From positions 1,536,001 through 1,600,000 of the forward strand of contig NZ_CP157522.1 of NCBI RefSeq assembly GCF_049075655.1: a stretch of 64,000 nucleotides of DNA, in the 5' to 3' direction. The position numbers and the translations under genes are program-made. Positions 561 to 64,000 of this stretch are shown here, piece after piece. The notes under the pieces were generated by a model. The model had not been told where the DNA came from. It searched no databases and saw nothing but the letters and a program-made list of their open reading frames with translations. Source of the stretch: Methanothermococcus sp. Ax23 (GTDB lineage Archaea; AGJL01; Methanococci; Methanococcales; Methanococcaceae). The stretch's first letter is position 1; the number at the start of each line of letters is the position of its first letter.

Positions 561-1301
561 ATGGATAAAAATGGAGATAACTGCACCAACATTAACAATT
601 TAAAATTAGACAAAACCCAAAGGGTTTTGTTGCTCGAACCTTCGGTTCGAATTATTAACGAATTTAAAAATCATCCTATAATACATAATTTAGTAGATTG
701 GGAGATGCTAAACAAAATATTAAAAGAAAATAACATAAAATTAATAGATTTTGTAGGTAAAGGGCATCGGGGAGTAGTTTTTAAAGGTTTAATGGATGAT
801 AAATTAGTTGCAGTTAAGGTGCCGAGAGTTGGGGCTAAAAATACAATCCACCATGAAGGAAGCATTTTAAAAGAAATTAACAAATTTGGAGTAGCCCCGA
901 TAGTTTATAATTTTTCAGAGGATTTTCTTATTATGGAATTTGCAGAGGGCATTAGCTTAAAGGACTATATGAACCAAAATGATATTGATAAAAAAGAACT
1001 TTTATGGATTATTGAAGAAACTCTTAGACAGTGTTTAAGGCTCGATTTACATAAAATAGACCACACAGAGATTCAAGGGGGAAAGCATATTATCATCAAC
1101 AAAAATATTAATAAAATATACATCATAGATTTTGATAAGGCGAAAAAAAGGAGAGCTCACAACTTCACAAGTGCCATGGCATTGTTTTTTGGTAAGTGCT
1201 ATATAGCAAATAGGGTGAAAGATGTATTAAATATCTCTGAGGATGAAGAAAGCCATATTATGGAGCTCGTAAAACTGTATAAAAAAATAGTTTTAAAATA
1301 A
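561..1301 (+). CDS. Predicted Ser/Thr protein kinase (archaeal, RIO-like fold)
   Basis: GKGHRGVV Gly-loop, VAVK lysine, IIDFD motif; GGTGA RBS before ATG 561. Confidence 0.75.
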   Translation: MDKNGDNCTNINNLKLDKTQRVLLLEPSVRIINEFKNHPIIHNLVDWEMLNKILKENNIKLIDFVGKGHRGVVFKGLMDDKLVAVKVPRVGAKNTIHHEGSILKEINKFGVAPIVYNFSEDFLIMEFAEGISLKDYMNQNDIDKKELLWIIEETLRQCLRLDLHKIDHTEIQGGKHIIINKNINKIYIIDFDKAKKRRAHNFTSAMALFFGKCYIANRVKDVLNISEDEESHIMELVKLYKKIVLK

Positions 1302-1328
1302 AAAAATAAAATAAATAAACGGGAGATT

Positions 1329-1781
1329 ATGGGAAAGAAGTATTTATTAATTTTATCATGTTCAAAAACTAAAAAGAACATTGACCGAGCTCCTGCAATA
1401 GAGCTCTACGATGGTATGTATTACAGAGTTTTAAGAAAAAATTTTAATTTAAAAGATAATAAAAATTTAGATATTTTAATATTATCTGCAAAATACGGTT
1501 TAATAGATTCCAATGAAATAATTGATTATTACGACCAATTAATGACTTCAAAAAGGGCGGAAGAATTAAAAGATAGTGTTAAATCAAAATTAAAAGAAGT
1601 TCTAAAAAATAACAACTACGATGAAATATTTATCACCATGGGGGCAACATACGAAAAGGCATTTGATAGTGAATGTAGGGAGCTCCTACAAAAATACAAC
1701 ACTCACTGGATTGAGGGCATGATTGGGGAGAGGCTTCAACAATTGAAAAAATGGTTAATATCCATTAATAATGATAAATAA
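1329..1781 (+). CDS. DUF6884/YaaA-like protein, a family often associated with TGT/DpdA loci
   Basis: LILSCSKTK...PAIELYDG...ILSAKYGLI...YYDQ motif pattern. Confidence 0.7.
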   Translation: MGKKYLLILSCSKTKKNIDRAPAIELYDGMYYRVLRKNFNLKDNKNLDILILSAKYGLIDSNEIIDYYDQLMTSKRAEELKDSVKSKLKEVLKNNNYDEIFITMGATYEKAFDSECRELLQKYNTHWIEGMIGERLQQLKKWLISINNDK

Positions 1782-1787
1782 AATAAA

Positions 1788-4106
1788 ATGCAGAATAGTG
1801 ATAATATGACATTGGAACTAAATGAATTTATAAACTCTATTGAAAATATATTGGGGTATGAGCTCAACACCAAACAGAAAGATGCCATACTTCACAAGGA
1901 TAATCCACTATGGGTTGTAGCAGGTCCTGGCTCCGGTAAAACTGAGGTTTTAGTGGTAAGAACTTTAAAGCTTATTTATGTGGATGGTGTAAATCCAAAA
2001 TCCATAATATTAACCACATTTACGAAAAAGGCTTCCCAAAATCTATTTAATAGAATTTTAAATTATTCAAATAAACTATGTGATATACATCCAAAATTAA
2101 AGGAGCTCAACATTGATATTCATAGCTTGAGAGTTGGAACACTTCACAGTTTATGCTCTGATATTATGAAGGAATATAAGTATATTGATTATGAAAATTA
2201 CAAACTAATGAATGAGATGGAAAATTATCTTTTTATATATAATCACTGCGAGCTCGTAAAGAACGGGGAGTTCTATAAAGAAGAATTATGGAAAAAATTT
2301 CAATATTTGGTTAAAAAATGGAACGCAGATAATAAAGAATGGTACATTGATACCAAAGATAAGGCAAGATTGGCTAAGGCAACTATTACATTATTTAATA
2401 GAATTGTAGAGGATAGGTTGGATTTGAATAAAATGAAGGTGAGCTCTAAAAAACACCACAGAATATTGGCAGAAGAATATGAAAAATTCATTGATAAATT
2501 GGAAGAATTTAAACTATGCAATTTTGCCACTGTGCAGTTAAAATTTTTAGAATTTTTAGATTCTGAGGACGGGGATTTATTTTTAAATGGTGGTGGGCAC
2601 AATCCAGAATTAAAATATATTATGGTGGATGAATACCAAGATACAAATCCTATTCAAGAGGAAATATATTTTAAATTGGCAAAGCATACTGAAAATAAAA
2701 ATTTATGTGTTGTAGGGGATGATGACCAGGCGTTGTATAGATTTAGGGGCGGGACTGTTGATTGTATGGTAAGGTTTGGTGATTCCTGCGAGAAAAAGTT
2801 GGGAATTCCAAAGGAGAATGTGAATAAAATATTTTTAAACTTAAATTATAGGTCTCATAAGGATATTGTAAAGTATTGCAATGATTATATAACATCCTTT
2901 GAGAAGTTAAAAAATGTTGAAATGGAAAAAGCAAGAGTTAAAGGTAAGCCACCATTAAAACCAGAAAAATCAATTAATGAAACATATCCTGCTTTAAACT
3001 ATCTCAAAGAAGAAAAAGATGAAGAATTAGCAAAAAAGGTTGTAGATGCTGTAAAATATTTTAAAGAAAATAGCATTATTGAGGATTACTCCCAATGTGT
3101 GTTATTAATCAAAAGCACAAGGGAAATAGATTATAAAGGAGAAAAGACCTTTATAGGACATGCTGTAAGTGAATTAACCAATAAGGGCATTGAAACATAC
3201 AATCCAAGGTCAAAGAACTTTTTAAGTCAAGAAGAAATAAAATTGGCATTGGGGGCATTCATATCTATTGTAGATAACGATTTGTATGTTCTGGAAAATA
3301 AACTGAGCTCTGAAAATATAAGCTCCGTTGTTGTAAATTGGTTTAATGAATATGAAAAAAATAAAGATAAATATCTAGAATTAAAGGAATATGTTGATAA
3401 ATCTGTCGAGAAAATCAAAAGTATGAAAGCAGGGAACTGGACAAATGCAACTATACAAGACATTCTTTATAAAATATTTGCATGCAGTCCTTTTTCAGAG
3501 TGGATGGATGACACTGAAAAAAGTTGTAGATTGGCAAAACTCACTCAAATATTTGATAGTTATTCATCAATACCTATGGATAATCCAGAGGTAAGCAGGG
3601 GAGCTCTGAAAATTGATTCGGAAGAGGATGGAAAAATTGACACTTTGTGGTTAATAAACTTTTACGGTTCTCTTGTTGGGCACTTTGTAAATGGGATGGA
3701 CGATTTAGAGGATGAGGAAGTAATAATTCCAGATGGGAAATTTCCTATTATGACTGTGCATCAGGCAAAAGGTTTGGAATTTCCAATAGTTTTCGTATAT
3801 GTTGAGAATTGGAAGGCTGAAGCAGATGCAGGCGCAAGATTGGAAGGGGAATTTTCAGAATACACAGATTTTAAAAGAATTACAACTAACCAATTCATAA
3901 AAACTAATCAAGACATGGTAAGATTTCACTATGTGGCATACTCACGAGCTCAGTATGGACTCATACATTTGTGGAGCTCCGAAAATTTGGAAAAGAGAAA
4001 GAGGAATAAGAGCAAATTGTATGGATTTATAAAAGGAAAACCAAATAATCTTGTAAGATATATTAAGAACCTCTATAATGGGAATGGTGCTAATAATACT
4101 TTATAA
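1788..4106 (+). CDS. UvrD/REP-family (SF1) ATP-dependent helicase
   Basis: AGPGSGKT, TFTKKA, VDEYQDTN, VGDDDQALYRFRG, NYRS, MTVHQAKGLEF, YVAYSRA motifs. Confidence 0.93.
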   Translation: MQNSDNMTLELNEFINSIENILGYELNTKQKDAILHKDNPLWVVAGPGSGKTEVLVVRTLKLIYVDGVNPKSIILTTFTKKASQNLFNRILNYSNKLCDIHPKLKELNIDIHSLRVGTLHSLCSDIMKEYKYIDYENYKLMNEMENYLFIYNHCELVKNGEFYKEELWKKFQYLVKKWNADNKEWYIDTKDKARLAKATITLFNRIVEDRLDLNKMKVSSKKHHRILAEEYEKFIDKLEEFKLCNFATVQLKFLEFLDSEDGDLFLNGGGHNPELKYIMVDEYQDTNPIQEEIYFKLAKHTENKNLCVVGDDDQALYRFRGGTVDCMVRFGDSCEKKLGIPKENVNKIFLNLNYRSHKDIVKYCNDYITSFEKLKNVEMEKARVKGKPPLKPEKSINETYPALNYLKEEKDEELAKKVVDAVKYFKENSIIEDYSQCVLLIKSTREIDYKGEKTFIGHAVSELTNKGIETYNPRSKNFLSQEEIKLALGAFISIVDNDLYVLENKLSSENISSVVVNWFNEYEKNKDKYLELKEYVDKSVEKIKSMKAGNWTNATIQDILYKIFACSPFSEWMDDTEKSCRLAKLTQIFDSYSSIPMDNPEVSRGALKIDSEEDGKIDTLWLINFYGSLVGHFVNGMDDLEDEEVIIPDGKFPIMTVHQAKGLEFPIVFVYVENWKAEADAGARLEGEFSEYTDFKRITTNQFIKTNQDMVRFHYVAYSRAQYGLIHLWSSENLEKRKRNKSKLYGFIKGKPNNLVRYIKNLYNGNGANNTL

Positions 4107-4125
4107 ATAAATATTTGGTGAAAAT

Positions 4126-5061
4126 GTGCTATTTGAGACGCTTAACAAATATAAATCTTTAAAAATAAAAAAAGAAGAAGATAATGATAAAATAAAACAA
4201 AAATACAGCATTACCGCAGATATACTATCCTTTCAAATATGTAAAAGGCAGTATGGATTTAACACAGTTAAGGGGTTTAGCAATACTCAGGAAACTCAGG
4301 AATGGCATGGAACCTTAATTCATCAGGTTTTAAGCAGATTGCATGGAAAATATCTACATAATGTAAAGCTTAAAAATAAAGGAATAATTGGAGAAAAAGA
4401 TTTAATACCAACAGATAAAGATGTAGAGGAGCTCTTTAAAAAAGCAAATGAAGTTTTAAAATCAAGAGGTATTAAACCAAAAAGTAGGGAAAATGAGGAA
4501 AAAATACTAAATCTTTTAAAAATATTTAATAAAAGGGAAGGGAAAACACTATATCCAAGGATTGTTGATTCTGAGTTAAGATTGCAGGCAGATATGGGGG
4601 ATTACATACTATACGGGGTAATAGATGTCGTTGTTGAAGGGAATGAAGGCATTGAAATATGGGATTACAAAGGAATGAAATTTCCAGATTTAAACCGAGA
4701 CTGGGGAAAGAAAAAACTCAGAAGATATGAATACCAAATGCTTGTTTATGCCGAGCTCTACAAACAGAGGTTCGGGAATTACCCTTCAAAATGTGTTTTG
4801 TATTTTATGAATGAGCTCACTAAGGGGAGCCCCCCTTATTTGAAATATGTGATTGATTTTAACGATAAGAATAATATTGATAAAATTAAAGATGCAATTG
4901 AAGATTTTTCAAATACTGTTAAAAAAATAGAATACTGCAAGGAAAACAACAATTGGACTATTGATGAAAAAGAAAAGCCAGACAAAGAAACCTGTGATGT
5001 TTGCGATTTAAGATGGAGTTGCCCCGCAGTTAAGGGAAAATATGAGATAAAACCCCTTTAA
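4126..5061 (+). CDS. PD-(D/E)XK (RecB/AddB/Cas4-like) nuclease with probable Fe-S/Zn Cys cage
   Basis: N-terminal Cys (FQICKRQY), GTLIH, GVIDVV, IWDYK, QMLVYA, C-terminal CDVCDLRWSC. Confidence 0.85.
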   Translation: MLFETLNKYKSLKIKKEEDNDKIKQKYSITADILSFQICKRQYGFNTVKGFSNTQETQEWHGTLIHQVLSRLHGKYLHNVKLKNKGIIGEKDLIPTDKDVEELFKKANEVLKSRGIKPKSRENEEKILNLLKIFNKREGKTLYPRIVDSELRLQADMGDYILYGVIDVVVEGNEGIEIWDYKGMKFPDLNRDWGKKKLRRYEYQMLVYAELYKQRFGNYPSKCVLYFMNELTKGSPPYLKYVIDFNDKNNIDKIKDAIEDFSNTVKKIEYCKENNNWTIDEKEKPDKETCDVCDLRWSCPAVKGKYEIKPL

Positions 5062-5078
5062 ATAAGGATAGAATATTA

Positions 5079-5171
5079 GACAAAATCACTTCGTGATTTT
5101 GTTGTTTGTCCAAGCGAAGCGAAGGACAACTTAAAACCGTAGGTTTTAGGTCGCTTGCTACCGCAAACGAT
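5079..5171. repeat. Stacked short-hairpin repeat cluster (copy A)
   Basis: acaaaatcac-ttc-gtgattttgt; ttaaaacc-gta-ggttttag; tcgcttgc-tacc-gcaaacga; right half matches the reverse complement of the cluster at 14326. Confidence 0.8.
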
Positions 5172-5258
5172 AACACAACTGGCAATGATAAATCTAATAT
5201 AACTTATTATTTAATTAATTAATAAAATTTATACTAACTATTACCTATCGGTGTAATA

Positions 5259-6521
5259 ATGATAAGATATTTTTTACCAGACTGGGAAGACAGATTAGAC
5301 CCAAATTTTGATTTTATAAATGATGAATACTCAGAAGAACATAAAACGAATCCCTATGAAAATGATGTGTATGCTCACCAAATTTTTAAAGAGCCCCCTT
5401 ATGATGGTATTTTATTTAGTTTAAGCGTTTTTAAGTCTAAAATCTCATTAAACAATAAAAAAGAAATTTACAAAATAAGAAATCATACGAGCATAAAGGA
5501 TTATTTAAAAATCCCTAAAAACTCAAATTTAGAAGTAATGGGAGACTGTGGAGCATTTGGATATGTAAATGAAAAAGAGCCACCGTTGCCCTTTTACAGC
5601 GTTGAAAATGTTGCCAAATTATACCATAAATTAGGTTTTGATTATGGAGTAGCTCCTGACCATTTAGTAGTGGATAAAATAACGATAAAAGACGAAAACG
5701 GAAAGAAAAAGAAAGTTCCTCTTACTCAAAAAGAGAAAGATTATAGGATAAACCTTACTTTGGAAAATGCTGAAAAGTTTTTAAAACTACACAATAAAAA
5801 AGGATACAACTACATACCCATTGGGACAGCACAGGGTTATGATGTGGAATCCTATAAGAGCTCCGTTAAATCACTTGTTGATATGGGTTATAATTACATT
5901 GCTCTTGGAAGTCTTGTAGGTTATAAGACCGAATTTATATTGAACATACTTCATGGAATACAGCCTGTGATAAGTGAAGACATAAAAATCCATTTATTTG
6001 GTGTTGTAAGAATAGGAGCTCTGAAAAAATTTGAAGAGTTGGGAGTTAAAAGTTTGGACAGCACCTCATTTTTAAGAAAGGCATGGTTAAGGTCAGGTCA
6101 AAATTATATGAAAGATGGTAAAGGGTATGCTGCTATAAGAGTTCCCTATACTTCAAATCCGAGAACTACGAAGAAAGTATTGGAAAAAGGATATTCAATG
6201 GAGTATTTAAAAGAGTTAGAACGCCGAGCTCTGAAAACACTGTTAGATTATGAAAAGGGACTGATTGATATAGATAAGACTCTTGATATTGTAATGGAAT
6301 ATGATAAATTATTTTTAAGAAACTCGAGAGATGGGAAAAATTTAAGGGAAAAATATTATAAAACTTTAAAAGATAAACCTTGGGAATCCTGCGAATGCCC
6401 CATATGTAAAGAACTGGGCATACATGTGGTGATATTTAGGGGAACCAATAGGAATAAGAGAAGGGGATTTCATAATGTATGGGAGCTCAGGCGGATGATG
6501 AAAGGCAATCAAAATGTCTAA
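5259..6521 (+). CDS. dpdA: tRNA-guanine transglycosylase-like protein of the DpdA type (probable 7-deazaguanine DNA insertion)
   Basis: YFLPDWEDRLDP N-terminus, MGDCGAF, PDH, GTAQG, IALGSLV, IHLFGV, SLDSTS, Zn site CECPIC...RGFHN. Confidence 0.8.
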   Translation: MIRYFLPDWEDRLDPNFDFINDEYSEEHKTNPYENDVYAHQIFKEPPYDGILFSLSVFKSKISLNNKKEIYKIRNHTSIKDYLKIPKNSNLEVMGDCGAFGYVNEKEPPLPFYSVENVAKLYHKLGFDYGVAPDHLVVDKITIKDENGKKKKVPLTQKEKDYRINLTLENAEKFLKLHNKKGYNYIPIGTAQGYDVESYKSSVKSLVDMGYNYIALGSLVGYKTEFILNILHGIQPVISEDIKIHLFGVVRIGALKKFEELGVKSLDSTSFLRKAWLRSGQNYMKDGKGYAAIRVPYTSNPRTTKKVLEKGYSMEYLKELERRALKTLLDYEKGLIDIDKTLDIVMEYDKLFLRNSRDGKNLREKYYKTLKDKPWESCECPICKELGIHVVIFRGTNRNKRRGFHNVWELRRMMKGNQNV

Positions 6522-6881
6522 TTATTTATGCGAAAAAAGAGAGCAACTCCAAAATTGTTGTTTTATGCATTAGAGTATGTTTTATGAGAAAATACATACC
6601 AATAATGTCTGACCTACTCCAACGAGTGAACTCGTTGGGTTCTCGCTTACGGTAGTAAGCGAGCAACGAAATCACGAAGTGATTTCGTCTAATTTTAGTA
6701 GGGTTTAACCCTACACGGGTGGCCAAGCCCACTACCCCTACCCATTAATGGGTTCAGGGCTACGCTATGCACTTCCAACCACTACCAGCGGTAGAGTTTT
6801 CACTAACCCTACCCATAGATACTTGGACTGGTAGCGTTACTTACTACTAATCTTCATATATTTATATTTTACTACTTACTA

Positions 6882-7926
6882 GAGGTTGTCGAAAAATATT
6901 AAATTATCAATAACATATAATACATGTTATGAAGGGGAATATAAAAAAGAAAATAGAAAAGAAAAAGACCAATCCTAAGACAAAAGGATACTGGAGAATA
7001 TACGACCTTAGATATAAGAAATACGACCTAAGAACTACTTATACGTTGATTTTATCCATTACAAACATGCTGAATCGTCCTTCTACCGAAGGACGAAAGG
7101 TTGGTAGGGTATCTGCCCTACCCTATAATGAATATGTGGTAGTTCTAATATTAAAACATATCTACAAACTAAGTTTAAGGGATTTAGAGACACTCTCAAA
7201 TACATTACATAACAAACATATTGACCATTCCACATACGGTAAAGCATTCAAGCGAATAGATACCTGGTGGTTATCTACCTTACTTACTTTTACATATGTA
7301 ATTATAGATAATCTACTAACTCAGCCCTCCAACAAACTATATATGGCAGACTCAACAGGAGTTTCCATAAATAGGTTATACTATGAGTGCATTCACGGAG
7401 GGAAACGTACTAAACGATTGGTGCATGATAAATTGCATGTTCTAGCATCATACTATCCAGAACAAGGATATATTCCAATAATCTCCGCCCGTTGGGGCGG
7501 AGGTTATAGTTCCGATAGTGCCAACCTATTGGAAATGGTTAAACAGATTGATTTTTTAGATAATGAATATCTACTGGCTGATGGAGGATATGATTGCTGT
7601 GAATTGTTTGAATATTTACTACAACACAATATCACTCCAATAGTTAAAACAAAAGAATTCAAGTGGAAGTATCATATTAGCAAAGTTAGAAAAACCATTA
7701 AGAGCATGTTTAACAAGGATTGGTATCGCCTTCGGGGGATAGTAGAATCCATATTTGGAGGGCTGGAGACTAAAAACAGGTTAAAATTAGATGACAGGTT
7801 GGCGGATAGCAGATGTAAAAGCACTATCGCAGTAGCGATAGTGCATAACATATTAACACTAATGAGGATATTAGTATTAACATATGATACCAAATAAATT
7901 TACTAATTCAATTATTCGACAACCTC
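6882..7926 (+). mobile_element. Complete insertion sequence (IS5-like DDE) with 16-bp terminal inverted repeats and 9-bp target duplication
   Basis: TIR gaggttgtcgaaaaat (6882) / attattcgacaacctc (7911-7926), 15/16 match; TSD tacttacta at 6873-6881 and 7927-7935. Confidence 0.92.
6929..7897 (+). CDS. DDE transposase (IS5/IS4 superfamily)
   Basis: LSLRDLE and DHST helix region; ADSTG, KLH, LADGGYD, YRLRGIVESIFG catalytic motifs. Confidence 0.9.
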   Translation: MKGNIKKKIEKKKTNPKTKGYWRIYDLRYKKYDLRTTYTLILSITNMLNRPSTEGRKVGRVSALPYNEYVVVLILKHIYKLSLRDLETLSNTLHNKHIDHSTYGKAFKRIDTWWLSTLLTFTYVIIDNLLTQPSNKLYMADSTGVSINRLYYECIHGGKRTKRLVHDKLHVLASYYPEQGYIPIISARWGGGYSSDSANLLEMVKQIDFLDNEYLLADGGYDCCELFEYLLQHNITPIVKTKEFKWKYHISKVRKTIKSMFNKDWYRLRGIVESIFGGLETKNRLKLDDRLADSRCKSTIAVAIVHNILTLMRILVLTYDTK

Positions 7927-8041
7927 TACTTACTAGCCAATATAATGTCCGCCTCTCATCCAATCTCGTAAGAGATTTTACAAAACTATGTTTTGTATAA
8001 CGACTGAAGTCGTTGGCTTTCCCGGCGGTTTATCGTAAATA

Positions 8042-8533
8042 TTATTTATTATCACCATGGTCAGATAAGATAGTAACATCGAATTCACAACAGTCATCTC
8101 CATTTGCATAACATTTTGTCTCCACAACTTTAACTTTTTTATCCAATATGGACTCTAAACATCCAGCAATAATTCCTGCTTCAAAATAACATATTGGTTT
8201 ACCTAAATTAGGCAATCCTGCGCAATCGATACATTCCCTGATTCTAAATTTTAACGGATCCTCACTAACTACGCTTAAAATTCCGATACCCAATTCTTTA
8301 AAAAATTCTTTCATATCATCTATTGATTTAATACCAATGTTTTCTCCAAAATGCATTCCCGCAAAATACAACTTAGATGCTGCATTAAATCCCAAATACT
8401 CAATAATTGAAAGTTTGAGTGCTCTAATCAATGAAACATCAGCTTGCCTACCCAGTGTAGGTCTATCTACATTACATATTTCTTCAAAACTTAGTTCTAA
8501 AATGTCTGATTTTTTCACAATATCCCTCCCCAA
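8042..8533 (-). CDS. V4R domain protein
   Basis: ECIDC...ICYFEAGIIAG...ETKCYANGDDCCEF. Confidence 0.85.
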   Translation of the reverse strand: MGRDIVKKSDILELSFEEICNVDRPTLGRQADVSLIRALKLSIIEYLGFNAASKLYFAGMHFGENIGIKSIDDMKEFFKELGIGILSVVSEDPLKFRIRECIDCAGLPNLGKPICYFEAGIIAGCLESILDKKVKVVETKCYANGDDCCEFDVTILSDHGDNK

Positions 8534-8723
8534 TCACGCGAATTTCAAACATTTTAATTTATGTGTGTCGTATATATAAATATTATGGGATTATGACATA
8601 TAGCTATCCAATTTATTACCATAATGGATTGTTAAGTTCAAACTATTCATATCTAAATTTATTAAATAAAATTATATATAGTATCAAATGGATAACTATA
8701 AAATAAAATATAGAGGGGATATT

Positions 8724-9488
8724 ATGGTAAAAATTATAGAAAAAATAATAAAAGATGCAGAGCCATTAAAAGATGCTATATTAATAGAGGGCCTTCCAGG
8801 AATAGGTCATGTAGGTAGAATAGCCGCAGAACATTTAATTCATGAATTTAATGGAGAAAAAGTTTTAGAACTTTATTGTGATGATTTTCCACCGCAAGTT
8901 TTGGTTAATAATGATGGAACAGTTGAATTTATGAATAATGAATTTTATTTAATAAAAGAACCAGTTCCCATGGTCGTAGTTCTTGGAAATACTCAAGCAC
9001 TTTCACCTGCGGGCCAATATCAACTTTCTCAAAAAATCGTAGAAATTGGTATAAGATACGGTGCAAAAATCACCTATACATTAGGGGGATTCGGCATAGG
9101 GCAGATAAAAGATACACCAACAGTTTATGTAGCTTCAACATCAAAAGAATTAGCCGATAAAATAAGCGAGCTCGGTGCTGAATTTAGACAGGATGGTGGA
9201 AGTATTATAGGAGCTGCTGGTTTGATGCTCACATTTTCAAAATTAAATGGCATTGAGGGGGTATGTCTTATGGGAGAAACTCCTGGATACTTGGTAGACC
9301 CAAAATCTGCAAGAAGAGTATTGGAAATACTTTCAAAGTTTGTTGGATTTGAGATTAGCATGAAAGAACTTGAAGAAAGGGCAAAAGAGATGGAAAAGTT
9401 CCTTGAAAAAATTAGAAAGTTCGAAGAAGAGGCATTGCAACAGCAGCAGATTCCTGCAAGTGAAGATGATTTAAGATATATAGGATAA
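8724..9488 (+). CDS. Proteasome assembly chaperone (PAC2) family protein
   Basis: IEGLPGIGHVG, FPPQV, TLGG, IIGAAGL, LMGETPGYLVDP. Confidence 0.88.
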   Translation: MVKIIEKIIKDAEPLKDAILIEGLPGIGHVGRIAAEHLIHEFNGEKVLELYCDDFPPQVLVNNDGTVEFMNNEFYLIKEPVPMVVVLGNTQALSPAGQYQLSQKIVEIGIRYGAKITYTLGGFGIGQIKDTPTVYVASTSKELADKISELGAEFRQDGGSIIGAAGLMLTFSKLNGIEGVCLMGETPGYLVDPKSARRVLEILSKFVGFEISMKELEERAKEMEKFLEKIRKFEEEALQQQQIPASEDDLRYIG

Positions 9489-14420: not shown

Positions 14421-16079
14421 TTAATGATTTCCGGGAATAATTAAATCCCTTTCACCCGCAGGTTCAAACTCCCTCAGAGCTCCTTTTGCAATGCACTTTC
14501 TTGGCCACTTAAAGTCAAATACCAGGTGCTTATCTGCAAATGCTACTTTAACAAGTGGGTTAAAGCAGAAGGCGTCTCCTCTTGCAGCGTGTGGTGCCTG
14601 GGCTATACCTGTATATTCTGGCTGATGTCCTACATTCATGGCATAGTTTGGATAGTTTGGACCTCTTGCCTCATGCAATGCACCTTCGTCAGCTCTAATG
14701 GATACGGAGTTTGCTGCTCCACACTGGTCTTGTAAGTCATATCCATAGAACCCCAATCTACTGTGGTATTCTTTGTGTAATATCTGGCTTAGATACCATC
14801 CATTAATTCCAGCATTTGAATTTCCTGTGGCAAATGCAACGGAACAGCCTGCTGCTGCTGCAACAACTCCTGTCCTCTGAGAACCTCCAAAGTGGTCTTC
14901 CAATAATGTAGGGTATTCATCATACTGTTCCATACCATACAATGTTACTTCTGTCGCAATATCCCTCACAACATCCATCGAAGCCTCTACACCACACATC
15001 CCATATTTGTCTTCCACATAATCCTTTCCATAATACACAAAATCATCCAAAATATCATCTGTATAGGTCGCACTTGCATACTGTGTAAATCCTACCCCTC
15101 CTGACATGTAGGAGCCAAGCCATACTTGGTCGTAGAATGTTGCCGCAGCTCCGATTACCTCCAAGGTCACTTCCGCAGGGTCATCACATACCCTTGATGT
15201 TTGAATTATGTCGGCAAATACACCGAATGGAACTCCCCCTGGTTCATTTGCCCCTCTTGCCCTTCTTGCAGGAAGTATTGTTCCCATCTGGATAACATCT
15301 GCGTGTTTTGCCGCATATGAGAAATCAGCAATTGCAGCTTCCCCAGCACAGAGTTTGTATGCCGTAATAAATGACATTCCAATCTGCATAGCAGACCATC
15401 TTGAAACTGTTCCACCATCACAGCACCTTACAACTACTGTTGGAACCCTTGAAACCTGATATGTTTTATTTCCAATGTATTTTTTTAACATCTCTGCCTG
15501 TTCTTCTGGGAACTCTTTGTTTATGTCGATTAAAAATCTTTTGTCGAGCTCATCTGCTAATTCATCATTTCCTGTAAATATTTTTGCATAGCAATCCCAA
15601 ACTAAACCTGGATGAACCTCAACCATGTGCTCCTGAACAACGGCACCTCCTGGCAGTGCGTGATTAACTGTTTCCATATATTCGTTTATTGTTTCAGGCG
15701 TAACCTCTACACCGAGCCTTTTTTCAAGAACAGCATGTCCTGTGTCCATACCTACAATGACCGTCCTTTTAATATCATCTACAAGCTGCTGAATTGCCGC
15801 GTTATTACAAAAGTGCAAATCATCTCCTTCCACATACTCGTCTGTTCCAGATATTTTATAGGTCATTAATGTTCTTTGTCCCAATGGAACTCCAATATCT
15901 GGGTTGTATCCGGGAATTCCCCTTTTTGATGTTATTTCCTGAGCTGCTTCATAGAACTCTCTTTTTCTTGCAGACTGTTTCCATCCTCCGAAGCAGTAAA
16001 AGCTCGTGTATTTTTCTTTTGGGTCTTCTTCGAATTTTTCCTTCAACGCCTTTAAGAACAATTTCTTTTCAGCATCCAT
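14421..16079 (-). CDS. mrtA: Methyl-coenzyme M reductase II alpha subunit
   Basis: [50 protein letters not shown]; operon order B-D-G-A without mcrC. Confidence 0.95.
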
Positions 16080-16882
16080 TATTCCTCACCTAATCTCTTT
16101 TTCAAATCGTGTTTAAATGCGTTCATTCCAAATCCGCCTTCACTCCTTGCCACATGTATTGTTTCAACAACCTCTAATGCCTCTTTGTCTTCCCTCATTC
16201 CAATATTGTCCTTTCTATAAATGGTCGTAATTTTTGCAAGATATTCTTGTGGAAGCGGTTCTCCAACATCTACTGGTTCATCCAAAGGTATTCCAACTTG
16301 TTCCTTTACATACAGAACATGCCCTGTTTTTTCATCGTAGATGTATCTCTGCAATCCATCAAACATGAGCCCATTTTCATCTAACCTCAATGAGTGCCCA
16401 TGCACAGTAGCTCCTCTCATACCACATGTTGCAGGGTCAAAGATTTCTGTTTCAACTAACCACTTTGAAATCTTTTCCAAGTCGAGCTCCCTTATTTCAA
16501 TAACCTGCCTTCCTGAGAGTGTCCCAGTATCTACTCCCCTAAATCTCCACATGTATGTTCTAGCTCTATCATAAGGTTGAGCTGGTGCGTTATACATAGA
16601 ATCTGCAAACTGAATATATCTAACCCTTATACCTTCTTTTGCTCCTTCAATTGGTTCTACAAGGTCTTTAATTGCATCCTCTTCAAAGTCCATTTCTTCC
16701 AATGGTGGGTGAACTGTTCTATAACTTTCTCCGGGGTTTCTATGTCCCAGAACTCTGACCAAATCATCATCTGAAATTTCCCTTAGTTTTTTTAATTCAC
16801 AGTTCGGGTCCATGTGCTTTCTTCTATTTTCACCTATTATCGTTTCCCCAGGGTAAAACTGCGGTTTATAATTCCCTTTCAT
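16079..16882 (-). CDS. mrtG: Methyl-coenzyme M reductase II gamma subunit
   Basis: [39 protein letters not shown]. Confidence 0.95.
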
Positions 16883-17377
16883 TTAATCACCTTTAATCAT
16901 CTTAACTTTATCAGAAGTTCTTGCAGTAGGGTCAGCCATTCCTATTAATCTAGGGTCTATTTTATCCTCAAACCCTTCTCCATACTTTAAATAGTCGGAA
17001 ACTGTTGGTTTTACTTTTGTAAATGCTCCCAAGTTCAAATTATAACCGAATGGGAATGCTTTTTTACATATTTCATCTAATTTTTCTGAGAGCTCTACAC
17101 TTTTTTCGTATGGAACTGTGATGATGAATTTCCCAACCTTAACGGTTAGTTCAACATCTTTCCCATTAACATTGATGACTTTCCTATCTGGATGATTTAC
17201 AGGGGTGCCTCTTGCAGGTCCGTAATAAACATATTTTGGTAAAGATTGACCATGAATAATTACCCTTATTATGTCCTTTCCAAGACTATAAATTGAATTT
17301 AACACTCTTTCAGTGGTTTCGGGCTTTAAATATCTGTAAGGGAATATTTGAATATCTACGGCTTTTATTTCTTCCAT
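16883..17377 (-). CDS. mrtD: Methyl-coenzyme M reductase operon protein D
   Basis: IFPYRYLKPETTE, HGQSLP..YGPARG; lies between beta and gamma genes. Confidence 0.92.
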   Translation of the reverse strand: MEEIKAVDIQIFPYRYLKPETTERVLNSIYSLGKDIIRVIIHGQSLPKYVYYGPARGTPVNHPDRKVINVNGKDVELTVKVGKFIITVPYEKSVELSEKLDEICKKAFPFGYNLNLGAFTKVKPTVSDYLKYGEGFEDKIDPRLIGMADPTARTSDKVKMIKGD

Positions 17378-17440
17378 AATTTCACCCATGAGCTTTAATA
17401 ATAAATATGTAGCAAGATAATGCACTAAGAAGGTTAAATT

Positions 17441-18775
17441 TTAAAGTTTATCTCTAATCTCTGAGACCCCCAAGGCAACATGCTTCAACGGCTCCCTCAG
17501 ATAGTCAATGGCACTATAAACCATACCTACCAATGAAGATGTTTTTTCAACGGAAAACATCTGAGTTCCTGCATCAAGGCACATGGCAGCGGCGGCACAT
17601 GGAATGGCAAATCCTTTACTATGTCTTGTAACTACGTGGTTTCCATGGAATGTTCCTGGACCTCCACCGCCGTAGATAGAATGACTGAAAAAGCTGAAAC
17701 CTACCCCAGTTCCCTCTGTTCTACCGAAATCAACACCCGGCAATCCAGTTTCATATTCAAGAATATCGTTGTAATAAAGCACCGTTGAAGCTACACCCTG
17801 TGCAGCCCTTGCTGCCCCAACATTCACCATAATGGATGCAACCAATCCCGCCGCTGCATAAGCATTCCACAATGCCCAGTCAGCAGGTTCATAAACTACA
17901 AATCCCGATGGCATGGTTTTTGATGGTTTAATTACTTTGTCCTCCAGAGCTCTTTCAACAACTGATGCTACAACAGTTCCCACTGTTCCGCTTTTACCGT
18001 TTTCTTTAACAATCTCATAAACAAGGTTGTTAGCGTTCAATCCTTGGAATGCTAAACCAAGTAAGTGGTATCTTTCAAATGCACCTACTGCATCCCCTGT
18101 TTCAAACATTGCCGTTTGTTCTAAAATGGATGACAACGCCACGGCATTTAATGTCTTTTTTCTTGTGATTGCCACGACGTGGTTTGCCATGATATTTCTC
18201 AACCCATATCCGAGACCTTCAAGCATTACAGGCGGACCAAGCAATGCCGCAATATTTGCACCGTGGAAATCTATTGATTGAGGATATCTTCCCAAAACCG
18301 CAGTTTTAATATTTGGTGCATTAAACATATTCACGTCAAAAGTATCAACTATTGACTGAGTTACCGCAGCTCCTGTGGCTAAGGTGGATATCGTATAATC
18401 GGCAGCTACTTTTAACCTCTTTGAAGGCAGCTGAACAAGCATTTGATTTCCATTGTTAATCAATTTAACAACTGTATCGTCCCCATCATGCACTTGAATC
18501 AGTTTTTTTACCTTTTCTGCAATAATTTCGGCATTTTCTACTATTGGCAAATCGAGCTCTCTCCCAGGGCAAACGCATGCCTTACCTCCAATTGCCCCAC
18601 TTTTTAGTGCATTCTGAATTCCAGACAGATTTACTGCAACAGACCTCTTAACATCGCCAATTATTTTCTCCACCGTTGGATTGATAATTGGGCTTATGGC
18701 GTCCAGTGGCACATTTTCTTCAAGAAGTTTTCCCTTCTCATCATACAAATCTATTTTATCTTCATATATAGTCAT
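17441..18775 (-). CDS. mrtB: Methyl-coenzyme M reductase II beta subunit
   Basis: [29 protein letters not shown]. Confidence 0.95.
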
Positions 18776-27635: not shown

Positions 27636-27798
27636 GAGCTCACCAAATTAATTTTTCTAAAAAAGATACTAATGTTAAATTATAAATAATGTTGATAAAA
27701 TAGAGCTCGTTGGAATATATTGGTGTCATGGGATACAATTAAAAATGTAAAATTAATATTAGATAAAATTATATAAAAAAGAAAAATTTATATTTTAA

Positions 27799-38128: not shown

Positions 38129-38386
38129 ATAATCGCCTCCTATATTTATATTTCATATACTTTTAATTATAATTTATTTTATGGATAAATGTTATAATAA
38201 CATATAATTTATTTTATTAAAATTTTTCATCGTAAATTATAAATATTATAAAAACTCTCTTAATTCAAAACTTGTTTAACATATCATGAGCTCACATCTC
38301 ATGACAATGAGACATACTACAATAGCCTTTTTTAAGGTTGATTTAAATTATATCTTATAGTATATAAGATTATTTTTGATGATAAT

Positions 38387-51968: not shown

Positions 51969-51992
51969 TCGGTCTTTGAAATGAGAGCTCCG

Positions 51993-53445: not shown

Positions 53446-53460
53446 AAAAATACACCTCGA

Positions 53461-59134: not shown

Positions 59135-59170
59135 TCTTTTCACCATATTATTTTACTAAATAATTAAACA

Positions 59171-59530: not shown

Positions 59531-59760
59531 ATTCATCACCAAAAAGGAAAAATTATTAATAAGAAAATATAATAATGATAATAAATATAACAATTCAAAT
59601 TTGTATTTGTTCATTATATTGTGGCACTGATATGATGATATATGATATAATGATGTATGAACCTATAAATAATTTGTCATTAATTATAATGATAAATATT
59701 TTTTAAAATATATAAATATTATGGTAATGAATCAGAAGCATTAATTTTATCGTCAAAAAG

Positions 59761-60309
59761 GTGAGAACTTTGGATATAAAACCGATTTTAGAGGAATATT
59801 TAAAAGATTGCAAAAAACTCGCCATAATGGGCATTGGAAATACTATGAAAGGGGATGATGGCTTTGGCATATTAATAATTGAAAATTTAGTAAAATACTA
59901 TAAAAATAAATATAATCTAAATCCCAACAATGAAGTAAATAAGATAGGAGATAAAATTATACTTCTAAATTGTGGGGTGGTTCCAGAAAATTTTACAGAT
60001 GTTTTAAAACGAGAAAATCCGAGTAATATATTGATAATTGATGCTGCATTGATGGGAGAGGTGCCTGGAACATTAAATATCGTGAATAGTGAAGATATAT
60101 CAGAAATAGGATTTTCCACGCACTCATTACCTATGAGCGTAATAGTTAAATACTTGACACATTATATAAATACCGAAATACTTATAATAGGTATTGAACC
60201 AGAAAATATAGATTTTGGAAAACCATTATCAAAAAAAATTTATGAAAAAAATTTAAAATTTACAGAGATGCTTATCGATTTATTAGATTCTTTTTTGGAA
60301 AATAGATAA
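59761..60309 (+). CDS. hycI: Hydrogenase maturation protease
   Basis: GIGNTMKGDDGFG, PEN, IIDAA, STHSLP. Confidence 0.9.
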   Translation: MRTLDIKPILEEYLKDCKKLAIMGIGNTMKGDDGFGILIIENLVKYYKNKYNLNPNNEVNKIGDKIILLNCGVVPENFTDVLKRENPSNILIIDAALMGEVPGTLNIVNSEDISEIGFSTHSLPMSVIVKYLTHYINTEILIIGIEPENIDFGKPLSKKIYEKNLKFTEMLIDLLDSFLENR

Positions 60310-60355
60310 ATTAATTAAATTAATTAAAATAAAAATTAATTAGCAAGGTGAATAA

Positions 60356-62440
60356 ATGTTTTCCATTAAATTTAAAACAACAGATGAACTGCCGGAGCCT
60401 TCGCCACGATTAATAGACCAAATAATAGGTCAGGACGAGGCTCTTAATATTGTATTAAGTGCAGTTAATAATAAAAGACATGCACTGCTCTTGGGAGACC
60501 CAGGAGTTGGTAAATCCATGATGGTTAAAGCAGTAGGGGACCTCATAGAAAAATCCAGCTCCGACTTTAAACCATATACAATACTAGCAAAACCAAATTT
60601 AAAAAACTCTGAAAAACCCATTGTAGAATTAATTGAGGGCCCTTATGAAGAAAAGGTTGAAGTTACAAAACCAAGTGTAGTTAAACAGCCACCGAACATA
60701 TTAACTATGATATTATTTATGATTGTATTCACTGCAATTACATCATATTTAATGAGGGGACTTCCAGAATCAAAGGTCCTTGGTGTAATAGCAACCGTCT
60801 CAATTGTAGCATTTGCCTTAGCATTTGTGGTTATTTTTTTAACGATATTTGGAGCCACAAAAGGTTCCATGTCAAATACAGTTAGCCCTATGGACTTAAA
60901 ACCTGTTGTGCTTTATGAATGCAAAAAACGACCTCTTGTGAGGGCAAGTGCCTATAATGTAACTAAACTATTAGGAGATGTTAAACACTGCCCTCTTGGA
61001 GGTAAGCCACCACTTGGAACTCCACCCCATAAGAGGATAATTCTTGGGGCAATACATGAGGCACATAAAGGAATTCTCTATGTAGATGAGATAAAAACCA
61101 TGCCACCAGAAGTTCAGGATTATATATTGACCGCATTACAGGACAAGCACCTTGCAATAAGTGGTAGAAATCCAAATTCAAGTGGGGCAACTGTTGAAAC
61201 AAATCCAATACCTTGTGATTTCACATTGATAATGTCGGGGAACATGGATGATGTTAATAACCTAAGAGCTCCGCTACTTGATAGGGTTGATTACAAAATT
61301 GTTCTTAAAAATAAAATGGAAAACACTCAGGAAAACAGGGACAAATTATTACAGTTTATAGTTCAGGAGATAAGAAATAACAATTTAAATCCAATGACTT
61401 ATGAAGCATGCTGTGAAATAGTTAAAATAGCCCAGTTGCTTGCAGGTTCAAAGGATAAATTAACTTTAAGGCTGAGAAGATTGTCAAATATTATAAAGAT
61501 GGCAAATGACATTGCAATGGGTAGAAATATAAAGGATATAATTAATGAGATGTCAGAAGCTGGGGTCGAAGAAATAGAAAACGAAGCTAAGGGACGTGAA
61601 GAGACAGCAGAAGATGATAAAAAACTAAAAAGCATCATGGGAGTGCTAAATAAAATAACAGAAAAAGATAAGGTGGAAAAAGAAGGAATGGAAAAAGGAA
61701 ATCCTACAATTAAAAAAGTTCAGAAGCACTCAGAAAAAGAAAAAATCTATATAGATATTGAACATGTTGCCGCTGTTGTAAATACAGGTATATACAGCAT
61801 GACCAAACAAGTGGCTATCGACTACCTGAGGAACTTTAAAAGATATAAAAACATCGTTCCAAATGATACTCCAAAGGTTGGTGTTGTGCATGGTCTCGCT
61901 GTGCTTGGTTCCGATGGTATCGGAGATGTAACAAAAATAATCACTCAAATAATTGATTCAAAGAACCCGAATACTCATTTACTAAACATTAGTGGTGACC
62001 TTGCAAAGCACAGCATTACTTTGGCATCTGCATTATCTAAAAAATATGTATCTGAGGGTAAATTACCTTTAAAATCAGAGGAAGATATTGATTTAAATTC
62101 AAAAGAAATATATATACAATTTAGTCAATCCTACTCAAAAATTGATGGAGATAGTGCAACTGCGGCGGTTTGCCTAAGTATAATTTCATCACTCCTGAAA
62201 ATTCCATTGAAACAGGATTTTGCAATAACAGGAAGCCTCGATTTAAACGGTAATATACTTGCCATAGGCGGAGTAAATGAAAAGATAAATGCCGCAAAAG
62301 AATATGGATTTAAAAGAGTAATCGTCCCAGAATCGAATATGATTGATGTAATAGATACGGAAGGAATTCAGATAATTCCTGCTAAAACCTTGGAAGAAAT
62401 AATTCCTCTAGTATTTGAAAGCAATCCCTTAAAAAATTAA
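60356..62440 (+). CDS. lonB: Membrane-anchored archaeal Lon protease (LonB)
   Basis: IIGQDEA, GDPGVGKS, two TM helices inside the AAA domain, AHKGILYVDEI, DGDSA, IGGVNEKI. Confidence 0.95.
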   Translation: MFSIKFKTTDELPEPSPRLIDQIIGQDEALNIVLSAVNNKRHALLLGDPGVGKSMMVKAVGDLIEKSSSDFKPYTILAKPNLKNSEKPIVELIEGPYEEKVEVTKPSVVKQPPNILTMILFMIVFTAITSYLMRGLPESKVLGVIATVSIVAFALAFVVIFLTIFGATKGSMSNTVSPMDLKPVVLYECKKRPLVRASAYNVTKLLGDVKHCPLGGKPPLGTPPHKRIILGAIHEAHKGILYVDEIKTMPPEVQDYILTALQDKHLAISGRNPNSSGATVETNPIPCDFTLIMSGNMDDVNNLRAPLLDRVDYKIVLKNKMENTQENRDKLLQFIVQEIRNNNLNPMTYEACCEIVKIAQLLAGSKDKLTLRLRRLSNIIKMANDIAMGRNIKDIINEMSEAGVEEIENEAKGREETAEDDKKLKSIMGVLNKITEKDKVEKEGMEKGNPTIKKVQKHSEKEKIYIDIEHVAAVVNTGIYSMTKQVAIDYLRNFKRYKNIVPNDTPKVGVVHGLAVLGSDGIGDVTKIITQIIDSKNPNTHLLNISGDLAKHSITLASALSKKYVSEGKLPLKSEEDIDLNSKEIYIQFSQSYSKIDGDSATAAVCLSIISSLLKIPLKQDFAITGSLDLNGNILAIGGVNEKINAAKEYGFKRVIVPESNMIDVIDTEGIQIIPAKTLEEIIPLVFESNPLKN

Positions 62441-62583
62441 TTAATATTTTTATATTTTATTTTTTTTACAACTTCACCATACGGTAATTTCCTTCCGTTT
62501 AGGAACCTATATATAGGAAAAATAATGTAATTAATAAAATATTTTTAAAAAATTTTATTGGTGAATAAAATGGATGAAGTTTT

Positions 62584-62894
62584 GGGGTCTGTCCAATGTG
62601 AGCGTTGGTGAGTAAATGCCCACATTGGACTTGGGCGTCATCAACCTTATATCCCTCTGGGTTCATTGGGAGCATGTCATCGGTCTCCTCCCCTGTCGTG
62701 GGGACCCCAGCTCCACCCATCAATTCGACAATTTGTTGGATGTTTTAACATGTTTAAAAGAGGTTTAGGAAAGTCTTGGAGTTGATTAGATTGACACTAT
62801 AAACTATGCATGAAAATACTATATAAACATTTCGAAAACTAAATGCTCCCATACACTCACAAATACTCACAAAAAACTAAACAGTTTTAAACGG
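62584..62894 (-). mobile_element. Non-autonomous IS607-type miniature element (311 bp, copy 2)
   Basis: Reverse complement of 51993-52303 with a handful of substitutions; GG at both junctions. Confidence 0.8.
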
Positions 62895-63092
62895 CAAATG
62901 TGTATATTACAAAAGAGAATGGAGAAAAAGAGAAATTTGATTTTGAAATTGTAAAGGAATCCCTAAGAAACGCTGGAGCGGATGAATCCCTCGTAGATGA
63001 TGTAATAAAAAGAATTGAAAATAGAATTCATGATGAGCTCACCACAGCAGAATTAAAGATGATGATTATAATGGTATTAAGAAGAATAAATA

Positions 63093-63373
63093 GTCAGCTA
63101 CCAACGGATAAATCCGTTGGCTTGCCCTTCCAACTCCCTCAATAATAAGGGCGGAGGACATTAGGCTGGCTGACAGGTCAGCCCTGCATTATTTTAATAA
63201 TAAACCCTTTCTAACCGTACCCACTCTATTGAGTTTCGTGCCTTAGGGTATGATTAATACTATTACATCTATATTATATAAATTTTTTTGGCATTCCTCC
63301 CATCTCGTAAGAGATTTTACAAAACATTGTTTTGTATAACGATTGAAATCGTGGGCTTCCTGCCTAATAATTC
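63093..63373 (-). mobile_element. Non-autonomous IS200/IS605-type miniature element (family 2, copy 2)
   Basis: Minus strand: TTCAC target, left end, TATA, structured segment, ccaacgga-ttta-tccgttgg-tagctgac right end; no target duplication. Confidence 0.82.
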
Positions 63374-63419
63374 GTGAAGTAGCTCAGCAATATACTACAA
63401 ACCATTCATAAATCTTATT

Positions 63420-64000
63420 TTATTTTTTATGGGTCAATTTATAAATTAAATTACTTAATTCCACTATTTTTTTAATATTTAATTTAAAAACCCTCTCGTT
63501 TAAATCAAATTCTGATAAGTTATTCAATATATCTTTCAGCTCATCACGATTTAAACCAATTTCATGAGATGAGTTGATAAGTGCTTTTTTAGCAGTTTTG
63601 TTTTTATGTTGGAATAGAGCTCTCACTACCTTCTCAAAAAATTCTTCATCTTCTAAATGGAAAAGTTCATTAGGCTCTTTTTTGGTAATTCTTACAATTG
63701 CAGAATCTACTTTTGGTTTTGGTGAAAATGCAGATGGTGGAACTTTACATATAAATTCTACATTTGCGTTATATTGCACAGATACGCTTAATCTTCCATA
63801 TTCTTTTGTTCCTTCCTTTGCCACCATTCTTTTAGCAAATTCATATTGATACATCAAAACTGCAACCTCAAAATCAGTTTTTAGAAATTTAAATGTAATC
63901 GGGGATGATATTTGGTAAGGTAGATTTGCTACTATTTTGTTAAAATTTAATTCATTTAGATTAACTTTTAAAGCATCATTCCAAATTACATCAACATTTG
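63420..64000 (-). CDS. rsmA: 16S rRNA adenine dimethyltransferase (partial, start outside window)
   Basis: [10 protein letters not shown] upstream in frame; [26 protein letters not shown]. Confidence 0.93.

Follow-up and report, generated by a model that had tools for sequence, protein, structure and literature searches.

GAGCTC as an archaeal highly iterated palindrome in Methanothermococcus sp. Ax23 and some other Methanococcales

The hexamer GAGCTC is strongly over-represented in a 64,000-nucleotide stretch of the genome of Methanothermococcus sp. Ax23 (contig NZ_CP157522.1, positions 1,536,001 to 1,600,000; G000:C1:1536001-1600000 in our numbering, hereafter "the window") and in the remainder of that genome. 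The word is best explained as an archaeal highly iterated palindrome (HIP), preferably in the form gGAGCTCc. Its excess is not a matter of codon usage, of a repeat element or of classical restriction avoidance, and is independent of the DpdA gene cassette that the window contains. The exact word, and nothing around it, is subject to a fixation bias at the DNA level, through either selection or drive.

An original prediction, made from the letters of the window, had put the number of GAGCTC sites at roughly 87, to be compared with an expected 4-5. The count is exactly 87:

1153..63622, no strand: 87 GAGCTC copies at a mean density of one per 736 bases, the last at 63617-63622

One hundred dinucleotide-preserving shuffles of the window gave a mean of 3.95 copies (standard deviation 1.75, maximum 8). 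The GC content of the window is 32.9%, not the 31% estimated in the prediction. The source genome (G000) consists of a 1,662,948-base chromosome (31.9% GC) and a 7,732-base plasmid; together they hold 2089 copies where base composition predicts about 125, a 16.7-fold excess. The observed/expected ratio (O/E) of GAGCTC ranks first among the 4096 hexamers of this genome and reaches 19.7 under a first-order Markov model. Under a fourth-order model the excess falls to 1.6-fold, because the pentamers GAGCT and AGCTC occur mostly inside GAGCTC. The inner tetramer AGCT is found at its expected level (O/E 1.03), with 2089 of its 5055 copies sitting in GAGCTC, and the remaining NAGCTN words have ratios of 0.3-1.3. 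The inverted word, CTCGAG, occurs 8 times. The plasmid carries 4 GAGCTC copies vs 0.35 expected.

Sites were assigned to reading frames using gene calls made throughout with an open reading frame (ORF) heuristic (at least 90 amino acids, longest taken first) rather than from annotation; 1560 ORFs were called on the chromosome, for a coverage of 86%. In the window, 34 sites are read as GAG-CTC, 33 as xGA-GCT-Cxx and 13 as xxG-AGC-TCx, and 7 do not lie wholly in a called ORF (27636, 27703, 38288, 51358, 51985, 56272 and 63035). Three of these seven are the sites named in the prediction as non-coding:

27703..27708, no strand: intergenic GAGCTC, outside called ORFs
38288..38293, no strand: intergenic GAGCTC, outside called ORFs
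51985..51990, no strand: GAGCTC within a 1.4-kb stretch that has no ORF of at least 90 amino acids and no Rfam match

The 2085 chromosomal sites divide into 1096, 621 and 224 in the same three frames and 144 outside ORFs. Shuffling synonymous codons within genes (30 genome-wide shuffles) left 190 sites (maximum 218) vs the 1942 observed in ORFs; the shuffle means by frame were 84.6, 80.4 and 25.1, and the observed numbers lie approximately 8-13 times above them in each frame. This null is conservative, since 1097 of the 2844 CTC codons lie within GAGCTC. Seen from the peptide side, 1097 of the 3931 Glu-Leu pairs of the genome are written GAG-CTC vs 66 expected, and the word is used in 621 of 863 [RG]-A-[LPHQR] tripeptides and in 224 of 1166 x-S-S tripeptides. 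With codon frequencies taken from outside the word, the odds ratios of GAGCTC by frame are 40.9, 33.2 and 13.2. In non-coding DNA, 144 sites were counted where 8.1 are expected (17.7-fold). Because the excesses in the frames, in non-coding DNA and on the plasmid are alike, a single force of similar size is at work in every context, raising the odds of the word some 13- to 40-fold.

These numbers leave practically no room for an artefact, be it of dispersed repeat copies or of biased use of amino acids, codons or codon pairs. The small residue under the fourth-order Markov model could be cited for such an artefact, though that model already holds GAGCT and AGCTC. The synonymous shuffle, the presence of the excess in all three frames and in non-coding DNA, the lack of conservation in the flanks past one base, and the fact that congeners of similar proteome carry as few as 4-115 sites all speak against it. 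The artefact was rejected on the strength of the shuffle, the range of contexts and the absence of local conservation around sites (see below). The claim of the prediction that the excess is genome-wide and independent of frame, as with cyanobacterial HIP1, thus persists after control for codon and amino-acid usage.

The favoured word is sharply delimited. When the 2 x 6 table of Glu-Leu codon pairs was fitted by quasi-independence with the motif cell left out (chi-square 9.4, 4 degrees of freedom), the motif cell stood at 69 times its fitted value and the remaining cells at 0.73-1.07 of theirs. The sole low cell is GAG-CTT (0.73), which is at 0.52 in the related genome G013 and at 1.30 in the part of G012 available for comparison. 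With the motif cell at 69-fold and its neighbours near 1, it is the exact hexamer alone that is favoured. A general depletion of one-mismatch neighbours, one of the signs that the prediction had proposed to look for, did not appear: GAACTC/GAGTTC has an O/E of 0.88 and only GAGCTT is low in the Glu-Leu table. The bases immediately outside the word do matter. The fraction of Glu-Leu pairs written as GAGCTC is 0.56 before a C and 0.18 before an A; with both flanks considered it ranges from 0.77 for G..C (n=185) to 0.13 for A..A (n=546), a graded preference for G at -1 and C at +1. Correspondingly, GGAGCTCC is in 105-fold excess, words with one favourable flank are in approximately 26-33-fold excess and those with neither in approximately 8-12-fold excess. 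Flanks past position -4 are at background, save for a mild excess of T at -5; GAGCTC is therefore not part of a longer repeat.

The fate of individual sites was followed in the complete sequence of G013, 380 kb of G012 and 800 kb of G005. Reciprocal best hits, aligned codon-wise to G000, gave 1206 orthologous pairs with G013 (median identity 76.0%), 226 with G012 (88.8%) and 561 with G005 (72.5%). Between G000 and G012, whose fourfold-degenerate positions are 0.666 identical, GAG was kept in 171 of 197 cases inside GAGCTC vs 532 of 1097 outside; the corresponding figures are 173/201 vs 64/251 for CTC, 92/97 vs 511/748 for GCT and 27/29 vs 187/394 for AGC. Codons were thus kept in 86-95% of cases inside the word and in 26-68% outside. 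At conserved Glu-Leu pairs, 162 of 188 GAG-CTC sites of G000 are also GAG-CTC in G012, a sharing of which the outside rates predict approximately 12%. By simple arithmetic on the codon-retention counts, the rate of site loss can be estimated at near 7% of neutral, or about one fifteenth. Divergence at fourfold positions is 0.28-0.37 in all distance bins, from 1-3 to more than 768 bases from a shared site, so it is the six bases that are constrained, and mutation is not lowered locally. Retention of codons inside the word, combined with unaltered fourfold divergence nearby, shows that a fixation bias acts on the word at the DNA level.

The comparison with more distant genomes shows that this bias has been strong enough to alter amino acids. 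Tripeptides that carry the word were found identical in G005 less often than those that do not, in frame 1 (106/261 motif vs 54/89 non-motif) as well as in frame 2 (27/83 vs 201/446). The same was observed towards G013 (frame 1, 234/525 vs 101/176; frame 2, 63/174 vs 557/1000). For Glu-Leu pairs, motif and non-motif peptides are conserved alike. The lower conservation of the frame-1 and frame-2 motif peptides implies that many sites arose through residue changes. The orthologue alignment that the prediction had called for thus revealed sites that are actively kept, many of them having been created at the expense of a residue. Sharing between G000 and G013 is limited: 193 of 601 Glu-Leu sites of G000 are common to both, vs a baseline occupancy of 0.19. 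In a comparison that takes flanks into account, 192 common sites stand against 115 under independence and 147 within flank strata, the latter figure being inflated by small strata; shared flank context explains part of the excess. Inheritance at the turnover rate seen between G000 and G012 would give, again by arithmetic, approximately 68% sharing vs the 32% observed. Sharing is thus far below what inheritance predicts, and some of the common sites may still be inherited. The G013 hexamers orthologous to G000 sites differ by 0, 1, 2 and 3 letters in 396, 96, 438 and 450 cases, respectively.

Along the chromosome, GAGCTC is spread much as random placement would have it. The spacing is Poisson-like (mean 797 bases, median 532 vs 552 for an exponential, coefficient of variation 1.09), with variance/mean ratios of 1.04-1.21 in 5-20 kb bins; no spectral peak along the chromosome reached the 95% permutation threshold, the best being at 0.83 of it. 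Occupancy per gene is binomial (standard deviation of z 0.98), varies little from one 150-kb segment of the chromosome to the next (0.24-0.32) and is equal on the two gene strands (0.278 vs 0.281); it declines slightly at both gene ends (the outermost tenths) and in the bottom quintile of GC at third codon positions. Intergenic sites showed no promoter-relative placement, their distances from gene starts being distributed like those of non-coding positions at large. A few regions depart from this regularity. An island at G000:C1:799418-816163 is nearly free of GAGCTC, with 14 of 110 opportunities filled vs 34 expected (z -4.4); an 11-kb gap without the word spans G000:C1:113848-124946; and a further gene island nearly devoid of it lies at G000:C1:1342927-1355393. 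All three are probably recently acquired DNA.

The distribution bears on the idea that an abundant DNA-binding protein organises the chromosome through GAGCTC, with selection keeping up the density of sites. Cyanobacterial HIP1 has been read as an element of chromosome or nucleoid architecture with conserved sites and a periodic distribution, to go by the available part of Xu et al. 2018 (PMC5861425), and conservation beyond neutral is likewise seen here; the graded flank preference, too, is more like that of a binding protein than of a restriction enzyme. An architectural role is nonetheless quite unlikely in view of the Poisson-like spacing, of the failure of the best spectral peak to reach threshold, of the mostly different site positions in G013 and of the enrichment of the 7.7-kb plasmid as well.

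The excess is confined to a minority of the order. Of 40 Methanococcales genomes, five are enriched, with 2089 (G000), 2070 (G012), 1645 (G010), 1515 (G013) and 1321 (G003) sites; the remaining 35 have 4-229. The excess amounts to 10.8-fold in G013 and to 20-fold in the G012 part. At the other extreme, the most depleted congeners have 14 (G005), 9 (G008), 16 (G002) and 4 (G007) copies. AAGCTT is also scarce in these, with 12-33 copies vs 253-325 in the enriched genomes, the depleted congeners avoiding AGCT words generally and not GAGCTC specifically. In the 800 kb of G005 (G005:C1:1-800000), all AGCT-containing hexamers are avoided (AAGCTT 0.04, GAGCTC 0.05, TAGCTA 0.19) and the most over-represented words are GAGGAG/CTCCTC and AGGAGG (9-10-fold). 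Restriction avoidance of GAGCTC does not apply to G000, where the word is enriched; the depletion is found in congeners only. A 760-amino-acid protein is 98% identical to its G000 counterpart in G003, 95% in G012, 84% in G008 and G002, 80% in G013 and 78% in G010. If the identity order of this one protein, together with the genus labels, mirrors descent, the enrichment would be polyphyletic. Among the genes that G000 has in common with G013, 644, mostly core genes, are missing from the 800 kb of G005; a synteny filter leaves 38 and a G012 filter 69, none informative. Sequencing runs labelled as single organisms contain 82-87% of sampled words from an 8-kb stretch of the window, and close strains may thus be available for study.

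The genome bears other marks of word-specific pressure. Short palindromes are avoided to an extreme degree in G000 and in the window: GATC has 157 copies (O/E 0.03), and the ratios are 0.07 for GTAC, 0.10 for ACGT and 0.14 for CTAG. In G000, CGCG and GCGC are at 0.13, CTCGAG is down to its 8 copies, and ratios of 0.04-0.14 are frequent among GTNNAC and CTNNAG words, whether these are palindromic or not. Restriction systems, some of them reading degenerate sites, would seem to have weighed heavily on this genome in the past.

A past of this kind, in a genus that is rich in restriction-modification if its extreme avoidance of GATC, GTAC, CTAG, ACGT and other words is a guide, would suit a methylation-coupled origin of the excess. 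In that model an orphan methyltransferase marks GAGCTC and an enzyme nicking at mismatches restores or creates the word, the excess being a functionless by-product. HIPs are tied to cognate methyltransferases, and a repair ratchet of this type is proposed, in the accessible portion of Elhai 2015 (PMC4390886). The confinement of the excess to the exact word would fit, as would the low level of the deamination neighbour GAGCTT among the Glu-Leu pairs of G000 and G013, and DNA methyltransferases of one family or another occur in every enriched genome. Against it, that neighbour is not low in the G012 part, GAACTC/GAGTTC is undepleted, and the lower fourfold divergence that site-anchored repair predicts near sites is not seen. 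Gene searches also failed to provide a carrier. C5 methyltransferases (PF00145) gave no match over cut-off in G000, G003, G010 and G012, and none of the families PF00145, PF01555, PF02384 and PF02086 is common to the five enriched genomes. The PF01555, PF02384 and PF02086 enzymes vary from one enriched genome to another: G012 has just a weak PF01555 match (26.9 bits with its neighbours) of a type found in most genomes searched, and in G010 PF02086 is unmatched and PF02384 gives no strong match. The two PF01555 genes of G000 (300 and 700 amino acids) contain no GAGCTC, and one of them adjoins a site-poor gene; both look recently acquired. Vsr was found in none of the five enriched genomes, and MutS_V and NucS (NucS_C) in none of G000, G012, G010, G013 and G008. 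A SacI-type nuclease (RE_SacI) was not matched either, a weak blank given that the positive control matched in no genome. With MutS_V, NucS and Vsr lacking and no common methyltransferase, the repair routes required by the model of Elhai or by a very-short-patch (VSP) type of model are not visible in these genomes. The motifs given for the methylome of Methanococcus aeolicus PL15/Hp (1,677,738 bp, 29.9% GC; by size and GC not one of the five enriched genomes) in the available part of PMC10113651 are CTAG, GTNAC, ACGT, GCACY and CGAG; GAGCTC is not among them. On balance we regard methylation-coupled repair as unlikely. The modification-directed process that the prediction had envisaged is left with no carrier gene, and the correlation of the excess with methyltransferase or repair genes that it had proposed to examine turned up no family that tracks enrichment.

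The other candidate driver lies in the window itself, in a region rich in sites:

1329..6521, + strand: four-gene Dpd-like cassette encoding a DUF6884/DpdC-like protein, a UvrD/AddA-like helicase, a PD-(D/E)XK nuclease and DpdA
1153..6488, no strand: kinase-like gene and Dpd cassette with 20 GAGCTC in 5.3 kb, the second-densest 5.4-kb stretch of the source genome
6882..7926, + strand: insertion sequence (IS) without GAGCTC, 1045 bases, with a DDE transposase ORF at 6929-7897

The four cassette proteins have 150 (DUF6884, weakly DpdC-like), 772 (helicase), 311 (nuclease) and 420 (DpdA) amino acids. DpdA, at 5259-6521, scores 426.6 bits with NCBIfam NF041059 (cut-off 200) and 411 bits with the PADLOC DpdA model. 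Bacterial Dpd systems have a ParB-like DpdB; no DpdB-like protein was found among the five proteins scanned, namely the cassette four and the upstream kinase-like neighbour. This neighbour, a 264-amino-acid protein at 507-1301 with weak Bud32-like and MAD6-like kinase matches, directly precedes the cassette; it persists in G012 (78%) and G013 (54%), whether or not the cassette accompanies it. About 20 sites had been predicted in this region, and 20 were found at 1153-6488, followed by none at 6489-9167; a sliding window at genome position 1537000 contains 19 sites vs a genome maximum of 20. Over the seven genes G000_1440-1446, 27 of 51 synonymous opportunities are filled vs 17.8 expected (z +2.88). 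The density of the cassette mostly reflects many Glu-Leu opportunities along with a somewhat raised occupancy, and the relaxed constraint that had been suggested for it is not needed. The absence of sites from the IS, to which the prediction had also pointed, is uninformative, its ORF offering just 1 synonymous opportunity. The IS has at least four further full-length copies at 96-100% identity, plus fragments. Around it lies a dispersed repeat, about 155 bases long and split by the IS into 6801-6882 and 7926-8000; each half has some 15 to 25 further matches in the genome, where the two are usually found side by side.

The cassette is an old resident, as the prediction had surmised. G013 has the same four genes in the same place, at 77-85% identity, next to V4R, PAC2 and FTR genes, and in G010 the cassette genes adjoin the same neighbours as in G000. 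G012 differs: only 172 bases separate its kinase-like and PAC2 genes, with neither the four cassette genes nor the IS between them, and its closest V4R homologue sits elsewhere. The hypothesis that this 7-deazaguanine cassette writes or reads GAGCTC and so drives the excess could draw on the occurrence of DpdA in three of the five enriched genomes (G000, G010 and G013) vs one of 26 others searched (G028), on the exceptional density and occupancy of the cassette, and on the resemblance of its helicase and nuclease to Chi-reading enzymes of the AddAB type. It is nevertheless very improbable. G012, which is 99% complete, lacks the four genes at the locus and yet has its 2070 sites; in 226 kb of aligned genes, private sites number 72 in G012 vs 80 in G000, with no sign of decay. 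No DpdA match was obtained in G003 (90% complete), and G028, a genome of the Methanocaldococcus family, has DpdA and 130 GAGCTC, with no excess. Published DpdA targets, in those sections of the literature at our disposal, are short (GA, GGC). The link between cassette and motif, offered as speculation in the prediction, was rejected on the G012 evidence. Since G012 keeps the motif without the cassette genes, the cassette is not the driver and, judging from these comparisons, is a long-term resident that bears the signature of its genome. Taken as a whole, the prediction is partly supported: the palindrome excess, the retention of sites and the residence of the cassette stand, and neighbour depletion, methylation, relaxed constraint and the DpdA connection do not.

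Our favoured account, in preference to methylation-coupled repair and nucleoid structure, is that GAGCTC marks self DNA and is read by a putative sequence-specific protein; we give it a probability of about 0.45. The bias would be exerted by a DNA-reading protein, probably homodimeric, that treats DNA bearing the word better than DNA without it. In the form we prefer, the drive would be akin to that behind DNA uptake sequences or Chi: DNA with GAGCTC would be preferentially taken up, recombined or spared from degradation, and the word would accumulate to approximately one per 800 bases. The density and the Poisson-like spacing fit a self mark of the "one per kb" kind, and the young DNA without the word (the 799-816 kb island and the 113.8-124.9 kb gap) counts in its favour. 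For cyanobacterial HIP1, an uptake signal is proposed in the available text of Rodriguez-Cruz et al. 2026 (PMC13756078), and improved transformation is described in the accessible part of a 2024 preprint (10.1101/2024.09.10.611283).

Several points weigh against a self mark. Family searches (PF00145, PF01555, PF02384, PF02086, Vsr, RE_SacI, MutS_V, NucS_C and ComEC) found no reader protein. ComEC (PF03772) has no match in any of the 40 Methanococcales genomes, so these archaea lack an uptake channel of the bacterial type; the search did not extend to archaeal type IV pili or other importers. Known uptake sequences and Chi are longer than GAGCTC and are non-palindromic; the uptake format of 9-12 non-palindromic bases contrasts with a 6-base palindrome with weak outer G/C. 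The low GAGCTT cell of G000 and G013 would also fit T:G mismatch correction. Comparison of genomes cannot tell selection from drive by conversion or repair, conservation of the non-coding sites in G012 (8 of 14 alignable vs 0.32-0.35 for control hexamers) is suggestive only, and the gene calls are heuristic. No uptake or transformation data for these organisms were found in the literature searched. That GAGCTC might be the first archaeal signal of a self-DNA recognition or uptake type, with a transferable reader that favours import, recombination or sparing, and with the word driven separately into up to three Methanococcales lineages, is a doubtful extension of this account.

Among known systems the closest likeness is to cyanobacterial HIP1 (GCGATCGC) and the alternate HIPs, which are also short GC-rich palindromes in at least 15-fold excess at approximately one per kb. 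As with HIP1, the word occurs in all frames and in spacers, is kept between genomes more than neighbouring synonymous sites, has a 6-base core with a preferred G...C outer pair and is present or absent from one relative to the next. It differs in its archaeal host, in being a hexamer spelled as a SacI site, in its lack of the periodicity described for HIP1, in the avoidance of the inner AGCT by depleted relatives, and in that the enriched genomes have no common methyltransferase family (different families of one specificity being possible), with MutS and Vsr not found. DNA uptake sequences (DUS) of Neisseria and uptake signal sequences (USS) of Pasteurellaceae have a density of approximately one per kb. 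GAGCTC resembles them in this density, in being written into coding sequence in every frame, with some cost to the encoded proteins, in its absence from newly arrived DNA and in that it could accumulate by drive alone; it is unlike them in being palindromic and only six bases long, and in occurring where ComEC does not. In E. coli, Dcm/Vsr VSP repair raises CCWGG by protecting one methylation site, and depletes the deamination neighbour. This shares with the present case a word-specific fixation bias for one exact word. It is set apart by the absence of Vsr and, in the four enriched congeners, of PF00145 matches over cut-off, by a GAGCTC effect an order of magnitude larger and by the mild lowering here of one neighbour alone. 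Chi, an over-represented word read by RecBCD and AddAB, serves as a self mark that protects DNA against a helicase-nuclease, and the window encodes an AddA-like helicase and a PD-(D/E)XK nuclease. Chi is asymmetric and oriented with replication. Unlike what a Chi-type pairing would have, the helicase-nuclease pair is missing at the G012 locus, yet G012 keeps GAGCTC. No description of such a word in archaea was found in the literature searched, the supplements of the cited papers not being covered.

Elsewhere in the window, an mcr operon without mcrC, of the MCR-II type and in the order B-D-G-A, lies at 14421-18775. The McrA-II protein of G000 shares 97% identity with a Methanothermococcus record. 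At the DNA level the operon matches three sister-family genomes at 79-81% identity and most congeners at only 72-76%, the figure for G003 being 92%; most congeners seem, from these matches, to hold only the mcr paralogue.

Three decades after the description of HIP1, the origin and upkeep of HIP palindromes are still debated among methylation-coupled repair, nucleoid structure and DNA uptake. The archaeal case eliminates two of the agents commonly invoked, in that the searches found neither MutS or Vsr repair genes nor a common methyltransferase family, and it shows a constraint restricted to the word itself. Occupancy of GAGCTC could act as a residence-time clock for DNA in these genomes. The on/off contrast among congeners (1321-2089 vs 4-115 sites) gives a handle on the mechanism, and close strains, which may be available, could give another.

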